Origin: Clostridiales bacterium
Lineage (GTDB): Bacteria > Bacillota > Clostridia > Oscillospirales > UBA644
Direction of reading: 5' to 3'
NCBI GenBank assembly: GCA_003343705.1
Contig: QAKR01000010.1
Location: 3,855 to 67,854, forward strand
DNA: 64,000 nt
A program made the position numbers and the translations under genes. The notes beneath the pieces were generated by a model. It saw nothing but the letters and a program-made list of their open reading frames with translations. It was not told the origin of the DNA and made no database searches. Shown here one piece after another: positions 34,961-52,890 of the stretch; the stretch's first letter is position 1, and each line of letters starts with the position of its first letter.

Positions 34961-35899
34961 TTAATTACATTCTGCAGTCAACGGACCGGCAAGCTCTTTA
35001 AGATAAAACAGTTTACCGGGAAGTGTAGGTATAAACGTAGAAGTGATGTGCATATCAGGGCCGTAATGGAGCGTTGTAAGGAAGCTCATACCCTGCCAAG
35101 ACATTCCTCTGCCGAGCATGCCGTCAGCCCCACCAATAGCATAATCAGCCTGCAAGAAGAGACCGGGACCTATTGTGTTGGCACGGCACGGTACCAATGT
35201 TGTTCGTGATTTGAAGCTGGTAATAGCATTTTGTTCTATTGTAAGCGGATGAAGCTTTGCACCAATACGGTAATTTTGCTGTTTCCATTCTTCAACGCTC
35301 TTGAATTCAGCTGCAAATTGAGGCTCCCAAAATGCGATATGGCACATTCTGCCTATACCGTATATTAAAACAAGCTTAACGCCTTCGGCTTTAAGTTTTG
35401 CAATTTTTTCAGGATATGTAGGAAGATTTGTTTTTGTTGCAAAATTTCTCTGACTTTCGGGAACTGTTAATTTACCGAGTTTATTAAAGAAAGCTTCTTT
35501 CATTGAATATTCAAAAGAAGCGGGGTCTGTGGATGGCAATGTGTTACCATCCCCGTCTGCCCATTCGTCCATATTAAAAGTATAAACATGTGAGCATGAA
35601 ACATTCCATTCTTTTAGGAAGTAAACAGCCCATTTATACATACCCATCGGTCCGACAGGAATTATCATTGCGAGTTTTTCACCTTTATCGCCGGCCTTTT
35701 TAATCTGCATTGCAATTTCATGCCCCATAAGAGTATCAAAATCGTTTATGTTGTCGCAAGGGATAGGTTTAAATTTCTTGTTCCAGAAGTTTTCTTTTTT
35801 AACGCCTTTTTCACAGCAGGCGTCGATTTTCGCCATATCCCATCCTTGCGGATAAAATCCGTCAAGAAGAGAATCTTTAACGGTAGACATAAAATCCAT
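34961..35899 (-). CDS. NagB/6-phosphogluconolactonase-superfamily sugar-phosphate deaminase/isomerase-like protein (312 aa)
   Basis: FNMDEW (compare NLDEY of NagB) and [15 protein letters not shown] (compare GIGxxGHIAFNEP). It is longer than canonical NagB. GGAGG SD. Confidence 0.65.
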
Positions 35900-35917
35900 A
35901 ATATTACCTCCAAATTA

Positions 35918-36895
35918 TTATTCGTTAATATAATCAAGTGCAGCCATTATACCTTTTTTAATAGCCGTGGTATCTTTACCATGTTTTGAACAAAGCTTTA
36001 ATGCACCCAAAAGTCTGTCATTAGGTGCTAGTTTTCTTTCGGTTTCACGGCCTACTCGCTTTGTAGTATCGCCGAGATATTTATTCTTAAAACGAAACAT
36101 TAAATCATCAGCATAAGCCAAAACTTCTTCTTTGGGCTTATTGTGCTCTTCAGCCAGAGACTCGGCAGAAGCGTACATGGCTTGTTTTACTGTTTGAGAT
36201 ATTTCTTCGTCTCCCATTGCCTGCCAAATATATTCATATCCCTTTTGCATACCTGTATATGCAGCAAGGGCATGCCCCATATTATGCAAAAACAGTTTAG
36301 ACTGAATATAGTATTCAAACGGCTCTGACGGTACCATTCCTTTAATCTCAGGAATAGGGTTTTTAAAAGCAGCTTTGTCAACGGGCAAGGTACAAAACGG
36401 TTCAACCCAGACTTTGTTTATATCACCTTCGCGCATTTCATCTGTCATAACAGGGACCATTCTCCCGACGCTTGCCTCAACAAAACCAACATCATCGCGG
36501 TTAAGATCCATAAGGTCTTTAAGATATTTGTCGGCATTCATAAGGTTTTCACAGATAATAATGTCAACGCCTTTTTCACGTTTTTCAATACCTTCTGCAA
36601 GAACTGGAGCTATATACGGTAAAACACGAACTCCTGCGGACGTAAAAATAATATCCGCTGTAGCTATCTCGTCAACCGCGTCATTTGAATGTACGGCACG
36701 AACGTTTTTTATAATTATTTCCTCTTGTTTTTCATTAGAAACAATTTTTATTGGGTAACATTTATCGGCATTGATTTTATCTATCATTGCCTGATTAACA
36801 TCAATAAAAACCGTTTCAAATCCGCTTTGATATAAAAGCTGACCTAAAAAACCTCTGCCGATATTACCTCCGCCGTAAACAATTGCTTTTTTCAT
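35918..36895 (-). CDS. Mannitol-dehydrogenase-family (MtlD-like) NAD-dependent polyol/sugar-phosphate dehydrogenase
   Basis: MKKAIVYGGGNIGRGFLGQLL matches the MtlD N-terminal GAGNIGRGF motif. I prefer the ATG at 36895, because the track start at 36928 adds 11 residues. Confidence 0.65.
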   Translation of the reverse strand: MKKAIVYGGGNIGRGFLGQLLYQSGFETVFIDVNQAMIDKINADKCYPIKIVSNEKQEEIIIKNVRAVHSNDAVDEIATADIIFTSAGVRVLPYIAPVLAEGIEKREKGVDIIICENLMNADKYLKDLMDLNRDDVGFVEASVGRMVPVMTDEMREGDINKVWVEPFCTLPVDKAAFKNPIPEIKGMVPSEPFEYYIQSKLFLHNMGHALAAYTGMQKGYEYIWQAMGDEEISQTVKQAMYASAESLAEEHNKPKEEVLAYADDLMFRFKNKYLGDTTKRVGRETERKLAPNDRLLGALKLCSKHGKDTTAIKKGIMAALDYINE

Positions 36896-36924
36896 AATTT
36901 TTAAGTGTCCTTTCTTTTGCTGTT

Positions 36925-37872
36925 TCAACCTGCTTCATGAGTTCTCATATATTCACAGATTTCTTCATAACTTTTAATTCCTGTAGATGCGCCTTTTGCC
37001 ATTATACAAAACGTTCCAACGGCGTTTGCAAGCTTTCCGCAATCTTTAAAAGAAAATCCTTTTGCAAGACCCGTTAAAAATCCTGCACAAAAACTATCAC
37101 CTGCACCGGTTGTATCAACCACTTTTTCTTTTGTGTAAGTAGGAAGATAGATGGGATCAGAATCTTTTGTTTCACGGATATATGCACCGTGTTTACCGTT
37201 TTTGATAACAACGTGTTTTACACCCTTGTCAAAGAAACAGTCTGCAATTTTATCCAAATCTTCTGTCCCCGCAAGCTTTGCTGCTTCATCAATTGAAGGC
37301 ATAAAAACGTCAACATATTGAAGGCAAGGCTCTAAAAGGCTCATCCAGCGATTTTTACTGTCCCATGCAGTGTCAAGGACAGTCATTTTACACATTTCAC
37401 GAGCTTTTTTTAGTGTTCTGGCACAACCGTCTCCGTCAAACGCGTCTAACAGCATCGTTCCGGCAACAAAGACTATTTTTGATTTTTGTATAACATCAAA
37501 GTTAACGTCATTGAAGTCGTATGTTCCGTTTGCGCCGACACAGTGTAAAAACGAACGCTCACCGGTTGATGAAGATAATACAACGGAAGCTGATGTTTGT
37601 GTTTTATTATCAACAACGATCCCATCCACATCAACACCATATTTCACAAGCTCATCTTTAAGAAACGCACCGAAGCTGTCGTTCCCTATCTTGCCCAGAA
37701 CAGCTGTCTTTATACCGATTTTTGCCATGTCTATGCCTGCATTCATCGCACAGCCGCCCGAAAATGTTTCTATACTGTCAACTCTTTCCAAAAGACCGGC
37801 TTCGGGAACTTTATCAACCGGCTTTGTGATAACATCAGCAACAAGGTTGCCTATGCAAGCAACGTCAATCAC
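36925..37872 (-). CDS. PfkB-family carbohydrate kinase
   Basis: Ribokinase-fold motifs GGCAMNAG and DTTGAGDSFCAGFLTGL. The GTG start after AAGGAGG overlaps the upstream stop (GTGA). Confidence 0.8.
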   Translation of the reverse strand: MIDVACIGNLVADVITKPVDKVPEAGLLERVDSIETFSGGCAMNAGIDMAKIGIKTAVLGKIGNDSFGAFLKDELVKYGVDVDGIVVDNKTQTSASVVLSSSTGERSFLHCVGANGTYDFNDVNFDVIQKSKIVFVAGTMLLDAFDGDGCARTLKKAREMCKMTVLDTAWDSKNRWMSLLEPCLQYVDVFMPSIDEAAKLAGTEDLDKIADCFFDKGVKHVVIKNGKHGAYIRETKDSDPIYLPTYTKEKVVDTTGAGDSFCAGFLTGLAKGFSFKDCGKLANAVGTFCIMAKGASTGIKSYEEICEYMRTHEAG

Positions 37873-38567
37873 GGCAATAACCTCCTTGGTTGAACCTTCG
37901 GATAAACAAACGCTTGAGTAAATGCTTCAGCGTATTGCACGCCGCATTGTAATCCCCTGTATTTTGCGCAAGTTCTGACAAAATCCGCAAAATCGATATT
38001 ATCGTGATCACGCATCCACTTTAATTGGCTTTCATGGCACTCAAGCATTTCAAGTTTAAGGTCGAATGTATCTGTTATATCAACATATTCTGTTGGATTA
38101 AACCCATGTCCTGCAAGATTATCCATATAGTAAAGGGGAACAACCTTTGCTGCTTTTCCGGTTCCGTAATGGGGGACAGTTGCTGCAAAAGACGCATCAA
38201 AAACAAGTCTACTTACCGCAACATGGTCACACATATAGTCCGTGGGAGCATGTGTTATTATAAGGTCAGGATCGGCATAACGTATAACATCAATGATTTT
38301 ATTACGCTGATCCATATCGCCGCCGTTTACCAAAAGGTCACCTATATCGCAGGTTATAACCTCTATCCCTGCAAGCTCCCCTGCCCTTTTTGCTTCGCCG
38401 ATACGGATTTTTCTTAACTCGTCCGGCATTAAAACCTCATGGCCCATATTGCCGTTGGCAACATGGCAAACAACAACTTTATCGCCGCGTTTTGCACATT
38501 TTGCAAGAGTTCCGGCGCAATTTATTTCCATATCGTCGGGATGGCACCCGATTGCAAGTACGTTCAT
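37869..38567 (-). CDS. PIG-L/LmbE-family N-acetyl-sugar deacetylase
   Basis: AIGCHPDDMEINCAGTLAK and HxxH-type metal ligands (ITHAPTDYMCDH) are typical of PIG-L deacetylases. Confidence 0.75.
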   Translation of the reverse strand: MNVLAIGCHPDDMEINCAGTLAKCAKRGDKVVVCHVANGNMGHEVLMPDELRKIRIGEAKRAGELAGIEVITCDIGDLLVNGGDMDQRNKIIDVIRYADPDLIITHAPTDYMCDHVAVSRLVFDASFAATVPHYGTGKAAKVVPLYYMDNLAGHGFNPTEYVDITDTFDLKLEMLECHESQLKWMRDHDNIDFADFVRTCAKYRGLQCGVQYAEAFTQAFVYPKVQPRRLLP

Positions 38568-38604
38568 ATAAATACCTCTTCTCGGTCAACAAAAAACCAC
38601 TATT

Positions 38605-39546
38605 TTATTTATTCCAGTTCCATGGCATCAGAATACGCTCATCAACGTCAGAGAAAATCTCCAAAATTTTTGAACGTGTGCTGTCGGAAATTCCCGAAGC
38701 GTTTGTGAGAACAAGATTTTCCTTAACCTGATCGGGAGTTTCACTACCCAAAACAAGGGAGGTAACACCGTCAAGATCACGAATGAAAGTTAAGGCTATT
38801 TCAGCAATGGATTTATTTTCTTCTTCCGAAAGTTTGCGCAGTTTTCTTAAAGGTTCTTTTGCAAGCTGTAAAACACCTTCCGGAAGTGTTTCAGGGTCAC
38901 GGAAGAAAAGCCCCTGTAAAAACACGCTTCTTATAAAGACTATAATATCTGCTTTCTTCAACTTTTCAAGCCCGCCGCAAAGAACGTTTTTAGTATCCAT
39001 CATATTAAGCGGAAGTTGAACAGCTTCATAAAGATCGTTTTTAACAACATCGTCTATGTATTTTGTAGAATTAAGAGAAACACCGACACGCTCAATCAAA
39101 CCTTCACTTTTAAGCTTTTTAAGAGCATTAGGTAAAACGTCACCGTAATCAAACATTTCACTTTCACGGTGAAACATTAGAAGAGGGAGTTTATTATAAC
39201 CGAGCGTCTCAAGTGAATTTTCAACCTGTGCCCGCAAAATTTTCTCAACGTCTTCAAGAGCTGCTGTTTTACCGGTATCTATCATTATTTTAAATTTTGT
39301 TACAATGGTAGGCTTTTTCCCTTTATAAGATTTAAAAAAGTCACCTACAACCTTCTCGCTGTCACCATAACCGGAAGCAGTGTCAACAACTTCAATACCA
39401 CCTTCACATGCTGTAGAAAGAATTTGTGCTGCAGTTTCTGTGGATGGTTTACCAAAAGTATTGTTGATACCGTAGTTTAAACCGAGTTGAACGGCACCGA
39501 GAGAAAGCTCAGATATTTCAAGGCCTCTTTGTGTGACTGTTTTCAT
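38605..39546 (-). CDS. Aldo/keto reductase
   Basis: LSLGAVQLG...IEVVDTASGYGDSEKVVG and a C-terminal LVLGSETPDQVKEN are typical of the AKR fold. Confidence 0.75.
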   Translation of the reverse strand: MKTVTQRGLEISELSLGAVQLGLNYGINNTFGKPSTETAAQILSTACEGGIEVVDTASGYGDSEKVVGDFFKSYKGKKPTIVTKFKIMIDTGKTAALEDVEKILRAQVENSLETLGYNKLPLLMFHRESEMFDYGDVLPNALKKLKSEGLIERVGVSLNSTKYIDDVVKNDLYEAVQLPLNMMDTKNVLCGGLEKLKKADIIVFIRSVFLQGLFFRDPETLPEGVLQLAKEPLRKLRKLSEEENKSIAEIALTFIRDLDGVTSLVLGSETPDQVKENLVLTNASGISDSTRSKILEIFSDVDERILMPWNWNK

Positions 39547-39642
39547 AAAATATAAACATCCCTTTCTTCGGAACTGTACCTATCAAAAATATATTTTTTA
39601 GTACAAGCCCCCGCTTGAAAGAATTATCTTCCAAAATATTTA

Positions 39643-40509
39643 TTAAAGATTGTCAGCTACAGCTTTTTCAATAATCTTTTTCTCGTCTGCTGTTAGCTCT
39701 CTGAACGGAGTACGGCAGCAGCCTACATCAATGCCTGTTGCAACGGTTGTCGCATACTTCATTGCGGGAAGGCCTCTTGTTTCAACAATTGCTTGCACGA
39801 TGTTGTTAATTCTGTGCTGGACATCCTGGCATTCCTTAACTTTGCCTTCGTCAAACAGACGTTTGATTTCAACAAATTTTTCAACTGCATAGTTACAGGA
39901 TGTTCCGATAGCGCCTTTTGCACCACCCATTAAAGCATATGCAAAACATTCATCTGCGCCGCTGTAAACAAATGCGCCTGTCATTTCAATAAGTCTGTCC
40001 ATAAGGTAGTAGTTTACATCTGTATATTTAACGGAGTAGATACGTTCATCAGCAAGAAGCTCCTTAAACTGTGCAAGGCTTAGGCCCACACCTGTTGTTG
40101 CAGGAACATTATATATCATAACGGGGAGATTTGCCGCATCGGCAAGGTCTGTGTAATATTGTTTAATTTCTGAAGATTGGAAACCATGATAAAAAGGAGG
40201 AACAGAAGCAACAGCGCCAGCGCCGGCTTTTTTAGCATGTTGTGCAAGGTCGCAAGCAAGACCTGTGCCGATAGAACCAACATGAGCTACAACCATTTTT
40301 CCGTCAGCAGCTTTAATAGCACATTCAAGTGTCTGCTTTCTTTCTTCCTGTGTTAAAAGGAAACATTCTGCGGAAGATCCGCCTACATAAACACCATCCG
40401 CACCGCGATCAATAACGCTTTTTGTCAATTTTGTAAGTGTTTCGAAGTCTACCGAACCGTCTTTGTTAAATGTAGTAAATAAGGGGACTAGGATTTCTGC
40501 TTTTTTCAT
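39643..40509 (-). CDS. DapA/NanA-family class I aldolase (N-acetylneuraminate-lyase-like)
   Basis: GVYVGGSSAECFLLTQEER (compare GSTGE/GTTGE), MIYNVPATTG, and the Schiff-base lysine context YSVKYTD. It sits in a sugar operon, not a lysine-biosynthesis context. Confidence 0.7.
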   Translation of the reverse strand: MKKAEILVPLFTTFNKDGSVDFETLTKLTKSVIDRGADGVYVGGSSAECFLLTQEERKQTLECAIKAADGKMVVAHVGSIGTGLACDLAQHAKKAGAGAVASVPPFYHGFQSSEIKQYYTDLADAANLPVMIYNVPATTGVGLSLAQFKELLADERIYSVKYTDVNYYLMDRLIEMTGAFVYSGADECFAYALMGGAKGAIGTSCNYAVEKFVEIKRLFDEGKVKECQDVQHRINNIVQAIVETRGLPAMKYATTVATGIDVGCCRTPFRELTADEKKIIEKAVADNL

Positions 40510-40530
40510 TTTAAAAACCTCTTTATAAAA

Positions 40531-41405: not shown

Positions 41406-41515
41406 ATTATCAATCTCCAAAATAAAAATCGATTTTATGTGCTATTTGTTTAATAAAAAAAGTAGTATAAACTTCTTTAACTTTATTAACGGGAAACCAC
41501 ATTCAAATAGCGACA

Positions 41516-42934: not shown

Positions 42935-42952
42935 GCATCCGCAATAAATTAA

Positions 42953-44040: not shown

Positions 44041-44051
44041 TTGCAGATTTA

Positions 44052-45326: not shown

Positions 45327-45363
45327 TTTTAATCTCTCCTTATCAATCTTTATATTCATTCAT

Positions 45364-45392: not shown

Positions 45393-45415
45393 TATGGGGC
45401 ATTGAAAAATAACAT

Positions 45416-48316
45416 TTATTTAACATCTTCGGTAAACAGCATCATAGCGTTTGAAATTGCATATGAACCGACATCTCCTGTTGTGGAGGAAAAGCGTATG
45501 TTACTCACATTTTTAAAGCTTTCATTCTCCGTGTATTCCTTAGGGAGATTAAAGGTTACAACTTTTGTTTCCCCGGGCTCCATCCGGCCCGAATCACCGC
45601 ATGTAATTTCCGAAGAACCAAACGCCATTCTCATAGAAATTCCGAGTACAGGGTCCTTCCCCGTATTAGTAACCATAAAACGTATAGTATTATAACCAGT
45701 TAAATCAGGGGAAGAATCTATAAACGCATTTGATTTTATTGTAAGTCTTGTAAGATTTTTATTAAAGGTTACATTTAAAATACTATCTGAAACAGAAACG
45801 TTTTCACCATATTTATTTGCAGGAATTGATGCAATTGAATTTTTGACATTTTCATCTGCAAGGTCAAATATCATACGACCGTCACTTATCTTTTGCATAA
45901 TAAGTTTTTTAAATATTTCAGTTTTCCCGTTTAATGAAACTTCCACATCATAAAAATGTCTTCCTGCATCCGTAAGCAATATTCTATACTCATAAACATC
46001 ATACTTTTCAGTCTCTTGAGTTAAAATTGCGTCTTTTCCTTCAACTTTTACGGTTGCTCCATGTGGAACATAAAGAGTTAATTCCTTTTTAAATATGTCT
46101 TCAACATTATCAGTTATATCAGAGTTTGTTACCACAAGTGGAATAGTATTGTTAATATCGAGACGAATACTATCACGAACTTTGAAGACAATTTCAGTAT
46201 TTTCAGAAATTATTTTCTTAACACAATTTACAAATGAAGATGACCCCATCTGATCTGCAAGCGAACCGAGATTTTGAGAAACCTGTTTTGTAAACATATT
46301 TTCTGCATTTTGTTCACGTGCAGATATGGTATCAATAGGTAAATCTAGTATTTTAGCGTTTTCTTTATATTTCTTATTTTCAAGCTCCATGTATTCATAA
46401 TCTTCAATACGTTTCAGATACCTGGTGAAAGATTCTCCGTTTACAACAACATTAATTTCACGAAGATTTTCATAAGCAGTTGAAAACACTCCAGAATATA
46501 TACTATATTCACCTTTATTTAATTCTGTTGCCGCTTTGCCGTCAATTAAAACCTGTGAACCCGGTTTTGCATAAACACGGACTTCTCGCTTATTTGTGCT
46601 TTCCTCGTCCATATACGGAAGAACAGTAATTATTGAGTCATTGTCCGACATTATTTCCTGTGCAAGAAGTTGACGCATTTCAAGCATCATTGTTTCGTCA
46701 TGATCAAAATCACCCATTGTATTATATAAAGGTGCATAATAAGTGTCCATTATTTCATCCACAGTCAAATCTGTAATATTCCACTTATCAAGCTTTTGTT
46801 GAATCTTTTCCTGTAAAAGCGTAAGATAAATATTATCTTCAGAACCGTCACGTATACTTTCCATTCGCATTGAGGGAACAGGAATATTCCTGTTTATAAC
46901 TCCGTCATTTTTACCGCCGATATAAACAAGATATCCGTCACCTGCCGAAATAGGAAATGCATATGGGTCAGTCCATTGAGCACGTGTCTCATAGCTGTCT
47001 TTTTCAGGATTATATTTCGCATTGCCAAGGGTTGTAGTCCAGAAAAGATTGCCAGTTATCTGCCAGTCTTTTTGCATCCACATAACAAGGCGGGAAGACA
47101 TCAGATAATCCTGTATATGATACGACGGAAAAGGATAACGAGGACCAATACATCCATACCACTGAACCTCGTCTCCTGCATCAATTCTGTCTGTAACATA
47201 TATTTCTTCTTCAGTTGTTTTGCTTGACCATATCCCGCACCAGGCATCAATGGCTCCGTAAAGAGTTGGTCTTGGGGCTGTTGTTGCTTGTGTTCTAACC
47301 TCAGAAAACAAGGCTTCAAGCGCAGCTTTTTTACCGTGAGCTTCCCTGTTTATGTCATCCCCGTCCGGAGGCTCGTCACGAATAACGTCGGTTACAAGGG
47401 CACTCAGCAGACCATACTCTTTCATTTTATTTAGAAATCTTAAAGAATCGTTACTGATGGAATATGTTCCGTCTGCATTCTTAATAAAACCTACATTATA
47501 TTTTAAGTTTTGCACACGAGGTTTCTCTAAATAAGTTTTATAAATATCTGCCAAGCCTTCCGGAGTATTACTCGACTCATACATATGACCAGGGTTAATA
47601 CGATATTCAAGGAAGAAATCAAAATATTGTCTCACTGTTTGGATATAATCTTCGCCGACATCAGACCCTGTTGCGGCCAATGTATTCCAAAGCGACCACA
47701 TCCAAATTCCGTAATACCCTTCAAAAGGAAGTTCTTCAGGAAGTTCAAAATCCCAGACTTCAATCTCAACGGGGATTTTTATAGTTCCCGAATCATGTGT
47801 GACTGTAACTTCTGCAGTGTAAATACCCTCTGCTTGATCTTTCGGAGTAGTAACAGTTATCCAGAAACCTTGATTTTTCCCGGATTGAACATCAACAGTG
47901 TTTAAATCCTGATATTCAAGAGGGATAAGTGCATCAGGATACCGACCCACAACAGGATATTCAGCAGCTTGTTTTTCAATATAATAGTAATGCTCTCTGA
48001 ATAATTGAACTTTTTTTATTGTCTGTCCGCTTCTGCTTGTTGGGGTCGACATTGAAATGCTGATGTTTTTAACGTCTTCATCAAAATTTAGAATAAATTG
48101 CATACCTTCAGCTTCATTTTTAGCCAGTGAAGCCGTCAATTTATCAATACCGTTGGGAGCAATTTTCTCCTCTGCACGATATTTTTTTGCATTAGAAACG
48201 ATAAATACATTTTCTATACCCATTTGTGTCGGCGCTTTACGGACAACAGCACAAGAGGTAAACATTGCGGAAACAATTGAAAAGATAAGTAAAACAGGAA
48301 TAAACGTCTTTTTCAT
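45416..48316 (-). CDS. DUF4091/GH123-like surface lipoprotein (966 aa)
   Basis: Lipobox AMFTSC. LAKNEAEGMQF, VIRDEPP (Asp-Glu pair), VQWYGCIGPRYPFPSY...RLVMWMQKDWQITGNLFW. Its AGGAGGG SD overlaps the stop codon of the upstream paralog. Confidence 0.8.
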   Translation of the reverse strand: MKKTFIPVLLIFSIVSAMFTSCAVVRKAPTQMGIENVFIVSNAKKYRAEEKIAPNGIDKLTASLAKNEAEGMQFILNFDEDVKNISISMSTPTSRSGQTIKKVQLFREHYYYIEKQAAEYPVVGRYPDALIPLEYQDLNTVDVQSGKNQGFWITVTTPKDQAEGIYTAEVTVTHDSGTIKIPVEIEVWDFELPEELPFEGYYGIWMWSLWNTLAATGSDVGEDYIQTVRQYFDFFLEYRINPGHMYESSNTPEGLADIYKTYLEKPRVQNLKYNVGFIKNADGTYSISNDSLRFLNKMKEYGLLSALVTDVIRDEPPDGDDINREAHGKKAALEALFSEVRTQATTAPRPTLYGAIDAWCGIWSSKTTEEEIYVTDRIDAGDEVQWYGCIGPRYPFPSYHIQDYLMSSRLVMWMQKDWQITGNLFWTTTLGNAKYNPEKDSYETRAQWTDPYAFPISAGDGYLVYIGGKNDGVINRNIPVPSMRMESIRDGSEDNIYLTLLQEKIQQKLDKWNITDLTVDEIMDTYYAPLYNTMGDFDHDETMMLEMRQLLAQEIMSDNDSIITVLPYMDEESTNKREVRVYAKPGSQVLIDGKAATELNKGEYSIYSGVFSTAYENLREINVVVNGESFTRYLKRIEDYEYMELENKKYKENAKILDLPIDTISAREQNAENMFTKQVSQNLGSLADQMGSSSFVNCVKKIISENTEIVFKVRDSIRLDINNTIPLVVTNSDITDNVEDIFKKELTLYVPHGATVKVEGKDAILTQETEKYDVYEYRILLTDAGRHFYDVEVSLNGKTEIFKKLIMQKISDGRMIFDLADENVKNSIASIPANKYGENVSVSDSILNVTFNKNLTRLTIKSNAFIDSSPDLTGYNTIRFMVTNTGKDPVLGISMRMAFGSSEITCGDSGRMEPGETKVVTFNLPKEYTENESFKNVSNIRFSSTTGDVGSYAISNAMMLFTEDVK

Positions 48317-48326
48317 ATCAGCCCTC

Positions 48327-51209
48327 CTAATTCACATTGTTATCAACGGAAACGACCATTATATTTGAAATTTCATAATACTCGTTTTCGCTTGCCCTTT
48401 CAGTCTGTGAAATTTTCAAACTCTGAATATTTTGTAAAGAATTACTATCCAGATAATCTTTAGGGAAGTTTGCAATGACTACTTTTGTTTCACCGGGTAA
48501 TATTGATCCGGAACTACCGCAAACAACATCAGAAGAACCTGCCGCAACAGAAAGAGATAAACCTATTGCTTTATTTGGGCCTGTGTTTTTAACTTCAAAT
48601 CGTATTGCCGTATATCCATCGAAATTATTACCTAAAGTAAAAGAATCCGGTTTTATTGTTATCCTTGAAAGCTTGCCTGAAAATTCTGCTTGAAGAGCTG
48701 AATTTCCAATATTCAAACCTGTTCCGTATTTATTGGTAGATATCTTAGCAATAGCATCTATTGTGTTTTGATTTGTTAAATCCACCAAAAGAGCACCCTT
48801 TTCAACCTGTTGAAGAATAACTTTTTTATATACTTCTGTTTTACCGGCTACAGAAACTTCTACTTCATAAATATAACGGCCGGTGCCAGAAATTTCTATA
48901 TCATATGTAAAAACGTCGTATCCACTTGCCTGTTTCACTAATTCAGCCGAATTCTTCTCAACCTTAACAGATGCTCCGTGAGGTGCATAGAGAGTTAAAC
49001 GTTTTTTCAATACACTGTCTGGGTCGCCGCTTATTTCTGCATTTGTAACAACCAGAGGGATGTTATTATTAAAATCTGTTTTTATACAATCACGTATCTT
49101 ATACGTGGTCTGTATGTCTGTATTTATGATCACCTTTTCGTAATCAATCACGTTGTTTGACTGAGAAAGCTGATCATCCAGAGAGCCTAAATTCTTTATA
49201 TTTTTAGGTGCAAACATATTTTCTTCATACTGAGCTCTTACCTTTTTATAATCAAGAGGTAATCCTAAAGCCTTAACATTGCTGTCAACAGATTCACAGC
49301 CAATTTCTATATACTCATAATCTTCAATGCGCTTAAGATATCTTGAATATTGTTCCCCGTTTATAGAAATTGTTATATGTTTCAGATTCTCGTTGGCAGT
49401 TAAAAATATCGATGAATAGGTGCTGTATTTACCGAAATTAGTCTCAGCTGCTTTGTTGCCAGCTATAACAACATCGGCATTGGGTTCAGCATAAACTCGA
49501 ACCTCTCTCTTATTGGTGCTTTCATCATCCATATATGCCAGTACTGCAACTATCGAACTGTCATTCATAATATCATGCGCCAACTGCTTACGTACTTGCA
49601 GCATATACTCAGGAGAATGGTTGTAATCTCCCATGGTATTATAAAGAGGTGCGTAATATGAATCCATTATCTGATCTGCTGTGACATTATCTATATCCCA
49701 TTCATCAAGCCTTTGTTGAATTTTATTTTGCATAAGACATAAATACTCATTATCTTCATTCCCGTCACGGATACTCTCCAAACGGATCGTCGGAACCGGA
49801 GTATTGTGATTTATAATACCATCATTTTCAGTTCCTATATAAATAAGATACCCATCTCCTGCAGGAGGGAAGGCTTGTGGATCGGTCCACTGATCTCGAG
49901 ATACATAAATTTCTTGTTCTGGTAGATACTTACTATCCACCATGGTGCAATACCAGAAAAGATCACCTGTTATATTCCAATCTTTTTGCATCCATCGAAC
50001 CAATCGTGAGGACATTAATCTGTCCTGAACGTGAAATGTTGGATAAGGCGCTCTTGGAGCCGTACAACCATACCACCAAACTTCATACCCACGTTGTTGC
50101 CAATCCCGTACATATCTTTCAAACGCAGTTGTTTCAGATGACCATATCCCACAGAAAAGATCAATATAGTCTGCAAGAGGTTCACGGGGAGAGGATGTTG
50201 TCATCACTCGCAGATCCGGGGCATACGAATTTATGGCAGCCAGTGTTTCTTTTTGTGATGCGGTTCCATCACCGATTTCATCAAACATATATATATAAGC
50301 TTTTTCAAGGGTCCCGTCGGCACGCATTCTGTCAAGAAGTGCCTTTGTGGCAGAGGTAGGAACGGCAACTCCGTTTTCTATTGTGTAATTGCCCAAAGCA
50401 CTTATATTATAGCTTGTAACACGGGGATCAGAGGCAAACCGCAAAATATCATTGGCGTATTGATCAACATTATTAAACGGTATGGGTAGATGGGTACCGG
50501 TAATCCTGTACTCTTGAAAAAACCAATAATATTGCTCCCACACATCATAATAAGACTGGCCGTTCAATGCATTATTCTTTTGCATTAGGTTGTATGCATT
50601 ATTCCATATTGCATATGCGGTTTCAAAAGATCGCTCTACAGGCAGAGCAAAATCCCACACTTCAATTTCAACCGGGATTTTAATAATTCCTCCGTCATGC
50701 GTAAGAGTTACTTCTCCTGTATAGATACCGGCTGTCTGCTCTTCTGTTGAAGTTACTGTTATCCAATATCCCTGATTTTCACCGGCTTTAATATCAACAG
50801 AGTTGAGGTCATCATATTTAAGAGGAATCATCGCATCCGGATAATATCCATGATTAGCATATCCTGCATTTTTCTCAACTGATATGTAATATTGGCGATA
50901 AGCCTCCGCTGCCAGAATCTCTCCTTTTTCATTTATAAAATCAGTCATTGAGAGAGAAACATTTGAAGCATCTTGATCAAAATTAAGGACAAATTGCATA
51001 CCTTCACCTTCATTTTTAGCAAGGCATGCTGTTAAGGTTTTTTGGTCGTTAGACGGTATATTCTCGTTACGCATATATTTAACTGCGTTTGAAATAATTG
51101 TTACATCTTTAATTGCTGGGGAGGCGGGCTCATATGATACAACCGAACAAGACATAAGCAGTCCTGCCAAGATAGTCGTGAAAACAATTACACATACTGT
51201 TTTTTTCAA
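48327..51209 (-). CDS. DUF4091/GH123-like surface lipoprotein (960 aa), tandem paralog
   Basis: Lipobox LLMSC. LAKNEGEGMQF, YMFDEIG, VWWYGCTAPRAPYPTF...RLVRWMQKDWNITGDLFW. TTG start 6 nt after GGAGGA. Confidence 0.8.
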   Translation of the reverse strand: MKKTVCVIVFTTILAGLLMSCSVVSYEPASPAIKDVTIISNAVKYMRNENIPSNDQKTLTACLAKNEGEGMQFVLNFDQDASNVSLSMTDFINEKGEILAAEAYRQYYISVEKNAGYANHGYYPDAMIPLKYDDLNSVDIKAGENQGYWITVTSTEEQTAGIYTGEVTLTHDGGIIKIPVEIEVWDFALPVERSFETAYAIWNNAYNLMQKNNALNGQSYYDVWEQYYWFFQEYRITGTHLPIPFNNVDQYANDILRFASDPRVTSYNISALGNYTIENGVAVPTSATKALLDRMRADGTLEKAYIYMFDEIGDGTASQKETLAAINSYAPDLRVMTTSSPREPLADYIDLFCGIWSSETTAFERYVRDWQQRGYEVWWYGCTAPRAPYPTFHVQDRLMSSRLVRWMQKDWNITGDLFWYCTMVDSKYLPEQEIYVSRDQWTDPQAFPPAGDGYLIYIGTENDGIINHNTPVPTIRLESIRDGNEDNEYLCLMQNKIQQRLDEWDIDNVTADQIMDSYYAPLYNTMGDYNHSPEYMLQVRKQLAHDIMNDSSIVAVLAYMDDESTNKREVRVYAEPNADVVIAGNKAAETNFGKYSTYSSIFLTANENLKHITISINGEQYSRYLKRIEDYEYIEIGCESVDSNVKALGLPLDYKKVRAQYEENMFAPKNIKNLGSLDDQLSQSNNVIDYEKVIINTDIQTTYKIRDCIKTDFNNNIPLVVTNAEISGDPDSVLKKRLTLYAPHGASVKVEKNSAELVKQASGYDVFTYDIEISGTGRYIYEVEVSVAGKTEVYKKVILQQVEKGALLVDLTNQNTIDAIAKISTNKYGTGLNIGNSALQAEFSGKLSRITIKPDSFTLGNNFDGYTAIRFEVKNTGPNKAIGLSLSVAAGSSDVVCGSSGSILPGETKVVIANFPKDYLDSNSLQNIQSLKISQTERASENEYYEISNIMVVSVDNNVN

Positions 51210-51267
51210 GATGCATCCTCCTAAATATACTTAATATGAAAAATTATATTATTTGCGAATCAACAAA

Positions 51268-52890
51268 TTAAAATTTATAATACCAGCTTAGTCTTCCTGC
51301 AGGGAGAACACTTCCGGAAACGTAATATTCAGAAATATCAAACGGATCTTTGACACTGTCTGCAACTTTAAAATAAAAACCTTCAGTAGCATCTGCACCG
51401 ATAATGTCGCGAGGTATAACAAGTTGCATTGTATTTTTTTCGATTATATAATCTGTTTTTGCATATGAAACAGTAAACCCGGCACAATTAAGTTCATCCA
51501 GGGAGCCTGCACAGCGGCGGTTTGCAACAAATTTATATCCTTCCCAGCCCTGTTTCTTAGGAGTGCCCGCAGATATGAAAACATTCATCCAACCCGGTCG
51601 CATACGGCTTTCAGTAATATCATTTTCAGTTTTTATAAGAAAATAAATATTATTTTTATCATGACTAACACGGACTTCTGTAATATTATTCTCAGCAGGA
51701 TCTGTGTGATAATGTATTTTATTATCATACGCAAAGCTGTCACGGCTGTAATTATCGGAAGTCTGCGGTAAATAAATATTTTTCACATCGTCCCACTGTG
51801 CAAGCCCTTCAGAGATATTAATTTCTTTCATTTTTGCACTTTGAGTAAAAGGAGTTGCTTTTTTAAATTTACGAATATTATTAATCATCTGCATATAGAA
51901 AGCATCACCGTATCCGCCGCGCATCATCTCAACATCGCGGGAATATTCTTCGGAAAAACAATCGCAAAAACCTGTCTCCCCCATGAGATTAAGCTTTTGA
52001 GCACCCCATTCATTCCACCCTGTAACAAACACTTCGTTTACGTCTTCGTTGTTTATAGCAGTGTCCCATTGTTTTTGGAAGTTCTGCCCAAGCCGGAAAG
52101 TGTCATGATTATCGTTACCTTCATGATCATAACCTCTGCCCCAGTTACCTTTTTGAGTATAAAAAATACCTTTTGCATGTTGAGCAACAGAAACACTGAC
52201 AACCCCTTTATGAATAGGCTGAGGATATGTCCATTCCATCCAGGGTAGACCTTTTTCACTAAATTTTTCATTAGGCCACTGAGAAACCCAAACATCAAAA
52301 AATTCATACATTTTAGGATCTTCTGTTTCAAGGTCTGAAGTTGCAACTATAACAGGCTTACCGTTAGGTGAATACCAAACATCAGGATGAAGATTTTTTT
52401 CTTTATAAAAAATTTCCCAAATAATCTGAACAGTCTGAACTGAACCTGAGTTTGTATAGCAGGCAACTTTAGGAACTTTAACTCCTTCTTTTTGGTATCT
52501 CTCAAGCTCTTCCATAATATTCAATATAACCTGTGGATATATTTGTGCATTTGTATTATCAAACAATATGTAGTCTATACCTGCGGCAGACAATAACTCT
52601 ATGTGCTTTCGTATTACAAAACGTTCCTCACTGTTATAATATCCATACAGCGGCTCGCCCCAGTAATGGAAACCCCATGCCGGGCTTTCGTCCGGACCTT
52701 TAACGTCCCATAACGATTCGGGATCTTTCTTTAACAGTTTTTCAATATCGTATATTTCTTTATCGCCTAACTGACCTAACCAGCAAAAATAAAAAATGCC
52801 AACTTTCTTTTTTTCATCAATTGAATCATAAGGCATGATTGTTCTGCCGAACTCATCGATACCGCATAGCGCATTAAAGTTTTTTTCCAT
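51268..52890 (-). CDS. Cytoplasmic glycoside-hydrolase-like protein of unassigned family (540 aa)
   Basis: No signal peptide. VGIFYFCWLGQ...FHYWGEPLYGYYNSEERFVIRKHIELLSAAGIDYILFDNTN...VTGWNEWGAQ looks like a TIM-barrel GH-like fold with a C-terminal beta-sandwich. GGTGGGA SD. It is the first gene of the island. Confidence 0.55.
   Translation of the reverse strand: MEKNFNALCGIDEFGRTIMPYDSIDEKKKVGIFYFCWLGQLGDKEIYDIEKLLKKDPESLWDVKGPDESPAWGFHYWGEPLYGYYNSEERFVIRKHIELLSAAGIDYILFDNTNAQIYPQVILNIMEELERYQKEGVKVPKVACYTNSGSVQTVQIIWEIFYKEKNLHPDVWYSPNGKPVIVATSDLETEDPKMYEFFDVWVSQWPNEKFSEKGLPWMEWTYPQPIHKGVVSVSVAQHAKGIFYTQKGNWGRGYDHEGNDNHDTFRLGQNFQKQWDTAINNEDVNEVFVTGWNEWGAQKLNLMGETGFCDCFSEEYSRDVEMMRGGYGDAFYMQMINNIRKFKKATPFTQSAKMKEINISEGLAQWDDVKNIYLPQTSDNYSRDSFAYDNKIHYHTDPAENNITEVRVSHDKNNIYFLIKTENDITESRMRPGWMNVFISAGTPKKQGWEGYKFVANRRCAGSLDELNCAGFTVSYAKTDYIIEKNTMQLVIPRDIIGADATEGFYFKVADSVKDPFDISEYYVSGSVLPAGRLSWYYKF

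Follow-up and report, generated by a model that had tools for sequence, protein, structure and literature searches.

A conserved, modular 14-gene operon with a probable role in amino-sugar glycan breakdown in an uncultured gut Clostridia bacterium

Which sugars are handled by a long run of same-strand carbohydrate genes, and do all of its genes serve one route? This question is raised by an island in the MAG 'Clostridiales bacterium DBX47', an uncultured gut Clostridia bacterium, which was analysed within a window of 64,000 nucleotides (the whole stretch of DNA examined). The earlier note had placed 14 consecutive minus-strand genes at 34961-52890, and 14 open reading frames are found back to back at exactly these positions. 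The island is a real, conserved operon that seems to serve the breakdown of an amino-sugar glycan, with β-N-acetylhexosamine and a sialic-acid-like sugar acid as its sugars. It is modular, and one linear pathway for all of its genes is unproven. The genes and the region upstream of them are as follows.

Upstream non-coding region, 52891..53100, minus strand, putative and likely operon promoter
g1, 51268..52890, minus strand, 540-aa GH99-like hydrolase candidate without signal peptide
g2, 48327..51209, minus strand, 960-aa lipoprotein, GH123-related beta-N-acetylhexosaminidase candidate
g3, 45416..48316, minus strand, 966-aa lipoprotein, paralogue of g2
g4, 44052..45359, minus strand, DegT/DnrJ/EryC1-family PLP sugar aminotransferase (Pfam E 6e-94)
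g5, 42953..43975, minus strand, Gfo/Idh/MocA oxidoreductase (Pfam)
g6, 41516..42832, minus strand, cytoplasmic ceramidase-fold amidase, catalytic domain only
g7, 40956..41420, minus strand, small subunit corresponding to the C-terminal half of a fused ~311-aa family
g8, 40531..40959, minus strand, small subunit corresponding to the N-terminal half in this family
g9, 39643..40509, minus strand, NanA-like class I (Schiff-base) lyase of the DHDPS family
g10, 38605..39546, minus strand, aldo-keto reductase (Pfam E 1e-31)
g11, 37869..38567, minus strand, PIG-L/LmbE-family N-deacetylase (Pfam E 7e-24)
g12, 36925..37872, minus strand, PfkB-family sugar or sugar-phosphate kinase (Pfam E 3e-60)
g13, 35918..36928, minus strand, mannitol-1-phosphate 5-dehydrogenase-like protein with N- and C-terminal Pfam Mannitol_dh domains
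g14, 34961..35899, minus strand, 312-aa NagB-like isomerase/deaminase candidate

The gaps between the genes range from -4 to 120 nt, and Shine-Dalgarno-like sequences precede most of them. The genes g7 and g8 overlap by 4 nt (ATGA) and are translationally coupled. The 4-nt overlap of g13 with g12 is doubtful because the true start of g13 is probably an internal ATG, which yields a protein of 325 aa, the length of its counterparts in the related loci L001 and L008. Region 52891..53100 borders on a small membrane ORF of the opposite strand (53101-53424), which has its own promoter match of 12/12. The hairpin after nadE lies further upstream, and no Rfam family matches within the region. Pfam and NCBIfam found a transporter, PTS component, or DNA-binding protein in none of the 14 genes, as the earlier note had stated for transporters, PTS components, and transcription factors. 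Nor does the 64-kb window as a whole, island included, contain a sialidase, transporter, or regulator. Because the island has no transporter or regulator, uptake and regulation must be encoded elsewhere. Families were assigned by Pfam, NCBIfam, and PDB sequence search. The previous family calls proved correct overall, with corrections for DUF4091 and g1. None of the island proteins scores above an NCBIfam equivalog cut-off; they are paralogues of the named enzymes and not those enzymes.

In a comparison of gene neighbourhoods, the 11-enzyme block was found in synteny in three other MAGs (L001, L008, and L014) at 58-95% protein identity, in keeping with the conserved catabolic-type block proposed earlier. 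Its flanks differ among the three, and synteny in different genomic surroundings indicates that the block is more than chance. L008 also retains g1 and one GH123-like gene. A variant, L017, is without DegT, Gfo, and the ceramidase-like gene, keeps the rest, and has GH43 instead. The pair of PIG-L and NagB-like genes, often with PfkB, is found apart from the other island genes in at least 594 species. Around the NagB-like gene, 73 loci together contain 48 PIG-L, 38 PfkB, 18 Gfo, 15 class II aldolase, 7 DegT, 7 MtlD-like, and 6 DHDPS-family genes, with PIG-L beside the NagB-like gene in 48 of these loci. The aldolase of these loci passes the ketose-bisphosphate aldolase subfamily cut-off. By tblastn, 18 distinct related loci have the class II aldolase, and 44 have a divergent AraC regulator. 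A NanA-like lyase lies 3-6 kb from the PIG-L/NagB-like pair, beside a PTS EIIC gene, in L015, L016, and L039.

Homologues of g7/g8 recur in 33 metagenome or assembly loci with lyase-module partners in varying order. These partners are a DHDPS-family lyase, ceramidase-like amidase, NagB-like protein, aldo-keto reductase, SDR, NagA-like amidohydrolase, XylB-like FGGY kinase, and YhcH/DUF386, together with cytosolic Asp-box BNR proteins and GntP or ABC transporters. More widespread, analogous clusters (type-2 clusters) repeat the same reaction types with non-orthologous enzymes. They carry g10 homologues at 34% identity and add YhcH and sialidase-like BNR genes, which favours a sialic-acid-like sugar acid. 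The lyase module recurs in at least 547 metagenome contigs, beside such YhcH-type and BNR genes and analogous kinases, deacetylases, and dehydrogenases. Some related clusters have GH78, GH127-like, GH43, and FG-GAP genes nearby, a hint that the glycan could be of plant or bacterial origin and not host mucin.

The preferred reading, with a probability of roughly 45%, is that the 14 genes form one modular catabolic operon composed of glycan-trimming, lyase, and funnel modules plus accessory steps. We infer all substrates and the order of steps, whereas gene order, families, folds, the g7/g8 split and fusion, conservation, and modular distribution are observed.

Trimming of a glycan with beta-linked N-acetylhexosamine would be carried out by the surface lipoproteins g2 and g3 and the intracellular GH99-like g1. 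The earlier label 'GH-like' depends on the family of g1, whose profile weakly matches GH99 structures 6fwo and 4ad1 (E about 6e-6), as g1 itself has no Pfam or NCBIfam match. Most of the 2116 representative clusters in this family have N-terminal extensions or additional domains; Pfam GH99 matches 11 of 56 members, and the 'WNEW' motif at residue 293 is conserved. Proteins g2 and g3 are 47% identical over their full length. Both carry lipobox-like signals (LLMSC and MFTSC) and GH123 N-terminal domains in Pfam (Glyco_hydro_123_N_2, E 2e-11, in g2), as had been noted before, but the DUF4091 part of that description was undetected by Pfam in either protein. Their catalytic region matches the beta-N-acetylgalactosaminidases 8k2j/8k2f/8k2h in the PDB sequence search (g2 residues 289-494 to 8k2j, E 7e-17). 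DE pairs are present at 310-311 in g2 and 314-315 in g3, and this motif is catalytic in the matched group (PMC11087588). The lipoproteins are of the beta-N-acetylhexosaminidase type, and not the nonulosonic-acid-releasing proteins that they had been taken for.

In the lyase module, g9 would cleave a 2-keto-3-deoxy sugar acid of the sialic-acid type, yielding pyruvate plus an N-acyl-amino aldose, with amidase g6, the two-subunit Bet3/V4R-fold g7/g8, and reductase g10 as partners. Against the NCBIfam N-acetylneuraminate lyase model g9 scores 236 bits (cut-off 281), below both NanA cut-offs, and its top PDB matches are all NanA (E 1e-46). Along its full length it shares 34.5% identity with E. coli NanA, and it retains S47, Y137, K165, G189, D191, and E192, with the catalytic and sugar-binding residues of NanA kept. 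The D191/E192 positions in E. coli NanA bind the glycerol tail (8,9-diol) of Neu5Ac. Since both are kept, Neu5Ac-type acids fit g9 better than 9-deoxy acids. Lyases of the wider type-2 clusters are without E192, T48, and S208, so the shared module may act on different acids in each cluster.

Residues 8-200 of g6 correspond to the N-terminal part of Pfam Ceramidase_alk. Its AlphaFold2 model (pLDDT 96) matched only the neutral ceramidases 2zws and 4wgk in Foldseek (E 8e-29, query TM-score 0.74). H87, H89, R145, H198, Y396, Y408, and E409 are invariant in the family, and g6 is probably a zinc enzyme. Protein g7 has no Pfam or PDB sequence match and is a weak paralogue of g8; its homologues are mostly fused to a g8-like half (819 fused proteins; at least 547 metagenome contigs). 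In the g8 family, C4, C88 (CPSKG), C107/H109/C110 (YCxHC), and C138 are invariant, and at least 90% keep C55. A confident model of the fused protein is two-lobed, and each half matches Bet3/TRAPP and H-NOX folds. Proteins g7 and g8 are split halves of a ~311-aa protein, fused elsewhere, with a predicted Bet3/V4R/H-NOX-like fold. The roles proposed for g6, g7/g8, g10, and g13 are guesses.

The funnel (g11, g12, and g14) may deacetylate, phosphorylate, and deaminate hexosamine to a ketose phosphate, standing in for NagA/NagB and, upstream, NanK/NanE. The best NCBIfam match of g11 is BshB1 (121 bits, cut-off 182). Kinase g12 has sub-threshold NCBIfam matches to IolC, ribokinase, tagatose kinase, and fructokinase. 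Its orthologues (45-51% identity) sit between PIG-L and NagB-like genes, often with class II ketose-bisphosphate aldolase. Protein g14 matches NCBIfam nagB far below cut-off (E 3e-14) and GlcN6P deaminases in the PDB (E 5e-6). Its family numbers over 6700 proteins, with identities of 77-93%, and spans at least 594 species. D72, E73, H143, and E148 of E. coli NagB are kept, among them the catalytic D72, H143, and E148, whereas D141, R172, and K208 are not. In NagB, the phosphate is bound by R172, K208, and the GGT loop; these do not align in g14, which makes a non-phosphorylated or different substrate possible.

The same enzymes could also be arranged in an oxidative N-acetylhexosamine route without sialic acid. 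In this case, g10 or g5 would oxidize HexNAc to N-acetylhexosaminate, g6 or g11 would free the alpha-amino acid, g4 or g14 would form a 2-keto-3-deoxy acid, and g12 would phosphorylate it before cleavage by g9 as a KD(P)G-type aldolase. Marine bacteria use a deacetylase/deaminase/KdgK route for oxidized chitin products (GlcNAc1A), and this counts for the proposal. Archaeal KD(P)G aldolase is also among the matches of g9 (E 2e-43), and those of g12 include KDG/KDGal kinases besides IolC. Type-2 clusters have SDR, AKR, and Amidohydro_2 (a lactonase family), and a GntP-type permease adjoins one of them. In bifidobacteria, DHDPS-family aldolases were predicted for a non-phosphorylative fucose route (PMC5583593). 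This route is nevertheless unlikely. The match of g9 to NanA is far better than that to KDG aldolases (236 versus 149 bits), with the sugar-binding residues kept, and the island has no lactonase or dehydratase. Moreover, NagB-type chemistry in g14 requires an alpha-amino aldehyde and not an aldonate, and the YhcH and BNR genes of related clusters suit ulosonic acid glycosides better.

For g13, the NCBIfam MtlD models give 266 bits against a cut-off of 356. A g13-like gene adjoins PfkB in L001, L008, L014, L017, L063, L070, and L135, and is one gene (Zn-ADH) away from it in L057. In the preferred modular operon, g13 may form a side route with the reductase and the kinase, from aldose through alditol phosphate to ketose phosphate. 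In another reading, the substrate of the lyase module is Kdo or a similar 8-carbon ulosonic acid, originating from LPS, capsules, or rhamnogalacturonan II. The released pentose would then become a pentulose phosphate through reductase, dehydrogenase, and kinase, and the amino-sugar genes would be a separate module. The type-2 kinase is nearly a xylulokinase equivalog (373.5 bits, cut-off 380), and AKR, SDR, and XylB-like kinase follow an arabinose-arabinitol-xylulose-Xu5P logic. Known Kdo hydrolases include sialidase-like BNR proteins as subunits, and the GH78, GH43, GH127-like, and FG-GAP neighbours also agree with this idea. g13 and its relatives match D-arabinitol 4-dehydrogenase weakly, but the C6 enzyme mannitol-1-phosphate dehydrogenase is a much better match for g13. 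With g9 NanA-like and its E192 kept, and with ceramidase-like, NagA-like/PIG-L, and NagB-like proteins that are integral to both cluster types and unexplained by Kdo, this reading is highly unlikely.

DegT and Gfo (g4 and g5) could convert an amine through a keto intermediate to a hydroxyl. In NCBIfam, g4 comes closest to PseC (229 bits, cut-off 423) and LegC without reaching either threshold, and its PDB matches are 7l7x, perosamine synthase, 2-deoxy-scyllo-inosose aminotransferase, and Kdo8N transaminase. In other loci, the DegT genes beside PIG-L/NagB-like pairs share only 33-36% identity with g4. The best NCBIfam match of g5 is IolG, below cut-off, and its best PDB match is 1,5-anhydro-D-fructose reductase 4koa (E 1e-36). 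Its identity to E. coli NanY is 30% over only 200 aa of the Rossmann half, so the previous assignment to the NanOx/YjhC type was not sustained.

PseC and LegC are 4-aminotransferases of legionaminic/pseudaminic biosynthesis, which brings in the linear pathway proposed earlier for a doubly N-acylated nonulosonic acid of this type or another diamino sugar. The lyase would release pyruvate and a 2,4-diacetamido-2,4,6-trideoxyhexose, g6 and g11 would strip the two acyl groups, g4 and g5 would turn the 4-amine into a hydroxyl, and g14 would remove the 2-amine. As the earlier note had observed, two different amidases and two amine-handling enzymes are present around the NanA-type lyase. Type-2 clusters likewise keep two amidases (NagA-like and ceramidase-like), the loss of NagB phosphate-binding residues in g14 is expected for a 6-deoxy substrate, and the literature searched gives no catabolic route for these acids. 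The pathway is improbable, however. These acids are 9-deoxy, and g9 keeps D191/E192; the partner aldolase of related operons is of the ketose-1,6-bisphosphate type, whose need for a 6-phosphate excludes a 6-deoxy sugar. Module distributions differ strongly: most of the hundreds of species with PIG-L and NagB-like genes have no lyase, DegT, or ceramidase-like gene, L017 keeps the rest without DegT, Gfo, and ceramidase-like genes, and type-2 clusters contain no DegT. The lipoproteins resemble beta-HexNAc-ases and not nonulosonic-acid glycosidases. The sub-threshold PseC/LegC matches are the only specific pointer to legionaminic or pseudaminic acid, and a sialic-acid-type substrate fits better. 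What endures of the earlier interpretation is a conserved, non-canonical block and its enzyme set, and not the linear pathway, lipoprotein role, substrate, or NanOx assignment.

The enzyme types of g5, g4, and g11 (IolG-like oxidoreductase, DegT aminotransferase, and PIG-L deacetylase) also co-occur in aminoglycoside biosynthesis, and spoIIID lies 155 bp downstream of the island. A non-catabolic role, in aminocyclitol/iminosugar-like biosynthesis or a sporulation-linked cell-wall amino-sugar function, is still extremely unlikely. The operon is headed by three glycoside-hydrolase-like genes and contains no glycosyltransferase, nucleotidyltransferase, or phosphatase. Related operons are found under AraC-type regulators with GHs, transporters, and a glycolytic aldolase, and the spoIIID adjacency is not kept in L001 or L008.

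The catabolic operon favoured here differs from known systems. Gut bacteria are credited with only three sialic acid routes in a 2023 review, namely NanA/K/E, NanL/NanE-II/RokA, and NanOx (PMC10017367). A tblastn search of the window revealed no homologue of NanK, NanE, NanQ, NanT, or NagA, and NanE, NanQ, NanT, and NagA were found in none of the 93 related loci, three of which gave weak ROK-type matches. No AgaS-type (SIS) domain was detected by Pfam in the 14 proteins. The mismatch with nan, nag, aga, and GNB/LNB operons noticed earlier is thereby upheld, and a literature search found no paper on the 11-enzyme block. Its PIG-L and NagB-like pair looks like a replacement for NagA/NagB (or AgaA/AgaS). 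The operon enzymes seem to replace textbook nan/nag/aga steps with a set that includes two protein families of unknown function.

The island is best described as a real, conserved and non-canonical operon for glycan utilisation and amino-sugar catabolism. It consists of fourteen consecutive minus-strand ORFs with intergenic distances of -4 to 120 nt, and a Shine-Dalgarno-like sequence precedes most of the genes. The ORFs found in the window agree exactly, in set and coordinates, with those of the earlier note, and its family calls were confirmed by Pfam, NCBIfam and PDB sequence searches. The island and the features around it are as follows:

34961-52890, minus strand: the island, genes g1 (52890 end) to g14 (34961 end)
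53101-53424, plus strand: small ORF with a hydrophobic (membrane) stretch between nadE and g1, likeliest start MTKIY
33807-34427, plus strand: 206-aa protein with both cohesin and dockerin domains
24215-30458, plus strand: Opp/Dpp-type ABC transporter (two permeases, two ATPases, SBP_bac_5), 4.5 kb from the island
3979-4053, minus strand: fluoride riboswitch RF01734, upstream of a 399-aa minus-strand ORF (2743-3942)

The searches assigned g4 to the DegT family, g5 to Gfo/Idh/MocA, g6 to ceramidase-like proteins, g9 to the DHDPS family (NanA-like), g10 to aldo-keto reductases, g11 to PIG-L and g12 to PfkB. g13 resembles mannitol-1-phosphate dehydrogenase, and g14 is weakly NagB-like. None of the 14 island proteins attained an NCBIfam equivalog cut-off, so they are paralogues of the named enzymes. 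The TTG starts of the ORFs of g13 (35918-36928) and g7 (40956-41420) are probably too far upstream; relatives of g13 have 325 aa and those of g7 149-150 aa, and both lengths agree with internal ATG codons.

The G+C content of the island (38.5%) is slightly higher than that of its flanks (35%). nadE and addAB lie upstream, and spoIIID, the cohesin-dockerin gene and serC/serA lie downstream. The small ORF between nadE and g1 has its own 12/12 match to a sigma-70 promoter with an extended TG (region 53061-53491), and a terminator-like 15-bp hairpin follows it. Because this ORF is on the opposite strand and has its own promoter, the operon promoter is expected in 52891-53100. Promoter and terminator scans gave counts in the island no better than those in shuffled sequence; therefore, they do not define the operon boundaries and were set aside as evidence. 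No regulatory RNA was found near the island with Rfam at gathering thresholds. The sole Rfam match is the far-off fluoride riboswitch (34.4 bits against a gathering score of 34), and riboswitch or RNA control of the island was rejected on this result. A biosynthetic or sporulation role for the genes next to spoIIID is extremely improbable. The cohesin-dockerin gene also adjoins the block in the related locus L008 and fits the cellulosome-like or "mucinolysome"-type gut Clostridia of PMC12997984. The Opp-type transporter was rejected as an island member, since it is encoded on the opposite strand with serA/serC, the cohesin gene and spoIIID in between, and it is also absent beside the block in L001 and L008. 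In locus L094, an Opp-type transporter lies directly upstream of a type-2 cluster (an analogous lyase-module cluster with a fused g8-g7 protein), which makes a link between the transporter of the window and the island conceivable.

The eleven enzymes from DegT to the NagB-like protein (g4-g14) keep their synteny in three further contigs from MAGs or assemblies (L001, L008, and L014), so the co-localisation in related genomes that the earlier note had raised as a point to check was found. Protein identity to the window block is 75-95% in L008, which additionally keeps g1 and one GH123-like gene, and 58-88% in L001 and L014. The flanks differ among these loci, which indicates that the block behaves as a unit. 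A variant in L017 is without the DegT, Gfo, and ceramidase-like genes; it includes GH43 and a second Gfo gene, and a sodium:solute symporter gene lies downstream of it. GH78 rhamnosidase, GH43, and GH127-like genes occur in or beside related clusters (L135 10462-12675, L144, L017 5810-7225, and L015 7376-9262), so the glycans targeted by some versions of the cluster may come from plants or bacteria rather than from the host.

The first three genes of the island are glycosidase-like. g2 and g3 are lipoproteins of ~960 aa that are 47% identical to each other, and both have a GH123 N-terminal domain above the Pfam cut-off. Their catalytic region matches the beta-N-acetylgalactosaminidase of PDB entry 8k2j (E 7e-17). 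A DE motif forms the catalytic pair of substrate-assisted beta-N-acetylgalactosaminidases (PMC11087588), and the DE pairs at 310-311 of g2 and 314-315 of g3, within the matched region, are its candidate counterparts. In the N-terminal GH123 domain and the catalytic-domain match, with a putative DE motif, g2 and g3 resemble the GH123 and Sumida et al. 2024 groups (8k2f, 8k2h, and 8k2j). In contrast to those enzymes, g2 and g3 are lipoproteins of low identity with ~450 extra C-terminal residues without assignment. g1 itself has no Pfam match. Its family comprises 2116 representative clusters, most of which have signal peptides or extra domains such as dockerin or F5/8 type C. Pfam Glyco_hydro_99 matches 11 of 56 family members (best E 7e-9), and GH99 structures are matched by the family profile along about 50-225 residues (E 6e-6). 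g1 has the conserved WNEW motif, and the second Glu of the GH99 catalytic pair is not evident. By these profile matches, the g1 family appears to be distantly GH99-like.

g9 is 34.5% identical to E. coli NanA over the full length. Ser47, Tyr137, Lys165 (Schiff base), Gly189, Asp191, and Glu192 of E. coli NanA are all kept in the alignment. With NCBIfam models, g9 scores 236 bits for NanA, 149 for KD(P)G aldolase, and 142 for DapA, and it stays under both NanA equivalog cut-offs (236/281 and 202/382 bits). Glu192 and Asp191 are presumably the residues that bind the glycerol tail of Neu5Ac. Their presence in g9 favours an acid of the Neu5Ac, Neu5Gc, or KDN type over the 9-deoxy legionaminic and pseudaminic acids; g9 shares both residues with Neu5Ac lyases and does not look like an enzyme suited to tails that are 9-deoxy and bear a 7-acetamido group. 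Cleavage of muramic acid or of lactyl ethers by g9 was dropped on chemical grounds, because it offers no 2-keto acid for a Schiff-base lyase. In L015, L016, and L039, NanA-like lyases are encoded a few kb from PIG-L/NagB-like pairs, beside a PTS EIIC gene, which suggests that the lyase product may feed that pair.

The lyase also recurs in type-2 clusters. The cluster of L096 encodes a GntP permease, DHDPS, YhcH/DUF386, the fused protein, an FGGY kinase, and NagA-like, ceramidase-like, NagB-like, SDR, and AKR proteins, with an AraC regulator alongside; L094 has the same enzyme set behind its Opp-type ABC transporter. Identity to the window is low: 24.5% to g6 for the ceramidase-like protein, 26% to g14 for the NagB-like protein, and 34% to g10 for the reductase. 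The kinase is XylB-like (373.5 bits against a cut-off of 380), and the NagA-like deacetylase and the SDR are non-orthologous replacements of PIG-L and MtlD/Gfo, the partners of PfkB. The fused g8-g7 protein was found on at least 547 metagenome contigs in a metagenome scan. Genes for the lyase, the ceramidase-like and NagB-like proteins, the reductase, and the SDR turn up repeatedly and in no fixed order across 33 loci that are 6 kb or longer (for example, DHDPS-Cer-V4R, V4R-Cer-DHDPS, and Cer-SDR-AKR-V4R), and the hybrid locus L135 joins a type-2 lyase module to PIG-L-Gfo-NagB-like-PfkB-MtlD. Thus a set of reaction types, namely a lyase, two amidases, a NagB-like enzyme, a kinase, a reductase, and a dehydrogenase, is repeated with different protein families, which argues that the genes work together in a single kind of pathway. 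Several type-2 operons have, within or beside them, genes for cytosolic BNR proteins that contain four or five canonical Asp-boxes (DUF386-BNR-DHDPS-SDR-V4R in L167), and a BNR gene lies just downstream of the block in L001. Both the BNR and the YhcH genes suggest ulosonic acids. In the alignment, type-2 lyases lose Glu192, Thr48, and Ser208; this loss and the xylulokinase-like kinase suggest that they may act on another acid, Kdo being one possibility. For the window itself, a Kdo-type route is quite improbable.

g6 is 100% identical to a protein of the MAG Clostridiales bacterium DBX47. A Foldseek search of the PDB with the AlphaFold2 model of g6 (pLDDT 96) gave no matches other than neutral ceramidases (2zws, 2zxc, and 4wgk; E 1e-27 to 8e-29), with a query TM-score of 0.74. 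An H-x-H/H/R/Y/Y-E pattern is invariant across the g6 family, and these conserved residues would suit a zinc amidase. g6 thus has the catalytic-domain fold of neutral ceramidases (P. aeruginosa 2ZWS and human 4WGK) at 14-18% identity. Unlike these enzymes of 630-670 aa, it has 438 aa, is cytoplasmic without a signal peptide, is without the C-terminal immunoglobulin-like domain, and is found in the company of sugar rather than lipid enzyme genes. With 26 bits, it falls far short of the cut-off of the NCBIfam neutral ceramidase model (1200). A lipid is an unlikely substrate. Sphingolipid catabolism, considered for the ceramidase fold, the lipid-binding fold, and the glycolipid history of GH123, was dropped because no neighbouring gene supports it. 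Distant ceramidase-like homologues (45% identity or less) occur in other contexts, as in L004/L005 (a Caldicoprobacter-type contig) and L007. One has a GH2-like gene nearby; another is beside a heparinase II/III and GH88 locus, and a third is beside two GH20 hexosaminidases, creatininase-fold proteins, an M20 peptidase, and a sugar ABC transporter. These contexts suggest links to amino sugars or peptidoglycan; they share no common pathway and were not used as a guide to one. The GH20 and heparinase contexts hint that amino-sugar amides may be a more general target of the family.

The reading frames of g7 and g8 share an ATGA, and the two proteins are weakly paralogous. A homologue search with the two sequences joined returned 819 proteins, nearly all of them single ~311-aa proteins with a g8-like half followed by a g7-like half; g7/g8 are therefore the split form of a two-lobed protein. 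Split halves also occur in L149, L153, L167, and L171, and one cluster (P0241) has the reverse order g7-g8 instead of the usual g8-g7 (P0242-P0360). In the plasmid collection, no homologue of the fused protein was found. A fused member was modelled (pLDDT 95) as two alpha/beta lobes that resemble each other. With Foldseek, each lobe matches Bet3/TRAPP subunits (Bet3 and TPC6), H-NOX, and YslB with a probability of 0.95-1.0 and a target TM-score of 0.4-0.57, at weak E-values (6e-3 or weaker); for the Bet3 and H-NOX domains, the probability is about 1 and the target TM-score 0.45-0.57. According to the model, the nearest solved relatives belong to the V4R-type small-molecule-binding fold. The Pfam V4R, H-NOX (HNOB), and TRAPP models gave no match to g7/g8, even at E up to 10. 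The N-terminal lobe has five invariant cysteines (C4, C88, C107, C110, and C138), an invariant H109, and a nearly invariant C55, including the motifs CPSKG and YCxHC. This distinctive Cys/His pattern, and the tandem or two-subunit form inside a sugar-acid operon, set g7/g8 apart from Bet3/TRAPP, V4R, and H-NOX proteins.

The third part of the island, PIG-L, PfkB, and the NagB-like protein, has by far the widest distribution. The NagB-like family of g14 includes more than 6700 proteins at 77-93% identity, and data with one genome per species place the gene in at least 594 species, from Lachnospiraceae, Oscillospiraceae, Acutalibacteraceae, and others. The 312-aa protein (34961-35899 in the window; loci L009-L093) is 77-93% identical across MAGs of several Clostridia families, and its operon partners are far less conserved (PIG-L 30-82% and PfkB 25-51%). 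Constraint or recent spread are the candidate readings of this high identity. In the plasmid collection, the NagB-like protein matched only distant proteins in an unrelated nucleoside context. In 73 loci, the neighbours of the NagB-like gene are PIG-L (48), PfkB (38), Gfo/Idh/MocA (18), class II aldolase (15), DegT (7), MtlD-like (7), and DHDPS (6). By tblastn, 18 distinct loci have a class II aldolase and 44 have a divergent AraC regulator, and no NagA, NanE, or NanQ was found in the loci around the gene. The score of the aldolase beside the module exceeds the cut-off for the subfamily of ketose-bisphosphate aldolases. The operons typically read PIG-L-NagB-like, PIG-L-PfkB-(aldolase)-NagB-like, and Gfo-PIG-L-NagB-like. 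These self-standing operons suggest that PIG-L and the NagB-like protein behave on their own as a deacetylase/deaminase module that parallels NagA/NagB or AgaA/AgaS. The pair is very widespread and apparently unrecognised so far. The catalytic Asp72, His143, and Glu148 of NagB, numbered as in the E. coli enzyme, are kept in g14 and its close homologues (a 15-residue stretch; alignment A4); type-2 relatives keep D72 and H143 and have Asp at position 148 (FIDP). The phosphate-binding Arg172, Lys208, and GGT loop are not aligned in g14, a tentative result because A4 is only 28% identical. The nagB model gives g14 53 bits against a cut-off of 237, and the AgaI model reaches only E 0.003.

The best NCBIfam matches of g4 are PseC (229/423) and LegC (217/420), at about half of the cut-off, and other DegT enzymes score similarly in the PDB. 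The earlier note had proposed one route for a di-N-acyl nonulosonic acid of the legionaminic or pseudaminic type, and the presence of two amidases, these PseC and LegC matches, and the apparent loss of the NagB phosphate site in g14 speak for it. The modular distribution of the genes, the bisphosphate-type aldolase partner, the Glu192 retained in g9, the type-2 clusters without DegT, and the HexNAc-ase nature of the lipoproteins argue against it and make it an unlikely explanation. A NanOx/YjhC-type role of g5, also raised there, was rejected, since the similarity to NanY is at family level: g5 is 30% identical to E. coli NanY over 200 N-terminal residues and closer to 1,5-anhydrofructose reductase (E 1e-36), and the extra Gfo gene of L001 matches NanY with E 5e-4 only. 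Among solved structures, the closest relative of g5 is an enzyme that reduces a 2-keto pyranose. An oxidative route from HexNAc to a sugar acid is likewise unlikely.

The preferred mechanism would begin at the cell surface, where g2, g3, and perhaps g1 would release beta-linked HexNAc-containing fragments. After uptake by a transporter encoded elsewhere, g9 would split a sialic-acid-type acid into pyruvate and an N-acyl-hexosamine, and PIG-L, PfkB, and the NagB-like enzyme would turn HexNAc into a ketose phosphate with no need for NanK, NanE, or NagA. DegT and Gfo may carry out an amine to keto to hydroxyl conversion, and the reductase, PfkB, and the MtlD-like enzyme may form a route from aldose to alditol-phosphate to ketose-phosphate. 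The ceramidase-fold amidase and the Bet3/V4R-fold pair would work on the acid, or on its amine, on either side of the cleavage step; one possibility is the removal of a second or unusual N-acyl group. This mechanism as a whole, from surface trimming through the g9 lyase and the PIG-L/PfkB/NagB-like conversion to the accessory steps, is given a probability of about 45%; families, folds, and synteny are direct observations, and substrates and step order are inferred.

A broader proposal is tentative and rather doubtful as a whole. According to it, a ceramidase-fold N-deacylase (g6) and the two-lobed Cys/His protein (g7/g8) are obligate partners of a DHDPS/NanA-family lyase in a new route for N-acylated ulosonic acids, and PIG-L with the 312-aa NagB-like protein replaces NagA/NagB. 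The substrates of that route may be sialic acids, in a degradation that bypasses NanK/NanE, or nonulosonic acids of bacteria, for example legionaminic or pseudaminic acid. The lyase route may extend over the at least 547 metagenome contigs and the pair over the at least 594 species of gut Clostridia; alternatively, the pair may act on mannosamine or galactosamine phosphates. Amino sugars of mucin and bacterial surfaces are major gut nutrients, and the marker genes on which pathway reconstructions for uncultured Clostridia depend are those of nan, nag, and aga. Should the PIG-L/NagB-like pair indeed replace NagA/NagB or AgaA/AgaS in hundreds of species, genome-based predictions of GlcNAc, GalNAc, and sialic acid consumers are systematically wrong there. 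The lyase module would give a first functional context to three families without a known role: the cytosolic ceramidase-fold amidases, the split or fused Bet3/V4R-fold protein, and the GH99-like g1 family (about 2100 representative clusters). The module might also reveal how non-host nonulosonic acids are catabolised, which is so far undescribed. The proteins are all small, soluble, and readily assayed in vitro.

The canonical sialic acid route (NanA-NanK-NanE and NagA-NagB in E. coli, Clostridium perfringens, and Ruminococcus gnavus) shares with the island the NanA-type lyase residues of g9 and a downstream logic of deacetylation followed by deamination or isomerisation to a ketose phosphate, and YhcH/NanQ-like and sialidase-like genes appear in island-related clusters. 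In contrast, the island is without NanK (ROK), NanE, NanE-II, NagA, and NanT. Its deacetylase is PIG-L and not an amidohydrolase, its deaminase is a divergent 312-aa relative of NagB, and its kinase is PfkB; the ceramidase-fold amidase, the Bet3/V4R-fold pair, and the AKR, DegT, Gfo, and MtlD-like proteins are extra. By tblastn, E. coli NanK and NanE had no match in the 64-kb window. In 93 related loci, NanE had none and NanK had a single weak ROK match, in L077. No NagA homologue was found in the window or the 93 loci, a PIG-L protein being in its position. The three published gut sialic acid routes all depend on either NanK/NanE or NanE-II/RokA (PMC10017367), and none of them matches the island. 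A comparative genomics study of mucin sugars gives AgaS/AgaI and NagB1/NagB2 as alternative isomerases and does not list a PIG-L-based route (PMC5583593). No published description of the island gene set was found in the full-text literature searched, in which subscription journals are largely outside the coverage.

The archaeal chitin route uses a PIG-L/LmbE-family catabolic amino-sugar deacetylase (Thermococcus Dac), followed by a glucosamine kinase and a deaminase, and is alike in this respect. The deaminase there is SIS-type GlmD, whereas that of the island is NagB-like, and organisms and polymer differ. In the aga pathway (AgaA, AgaS/AgaI, tagatose-6-P kinase, and KbaY/GatY aldolase), the differences are that the island proteins are without an AgaA-type amidohydrolase (Amidohydro_1), an AgaS (SIS) domain, and a PTS. 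No class II aldolase was found in the 64-kb window by tblastn; the MtlD-like dehydrogenase stands in its place in the island. The aga reaction series is reproduced in many relatives by the operon of PIG-L, PfkB, class II ketose-bisphosphate aldolase, and the NagB-like protein. AgaI, like g14, is a NagB-family protein, and the island adds the beta-GalNAc-ase-like lipoproteins.
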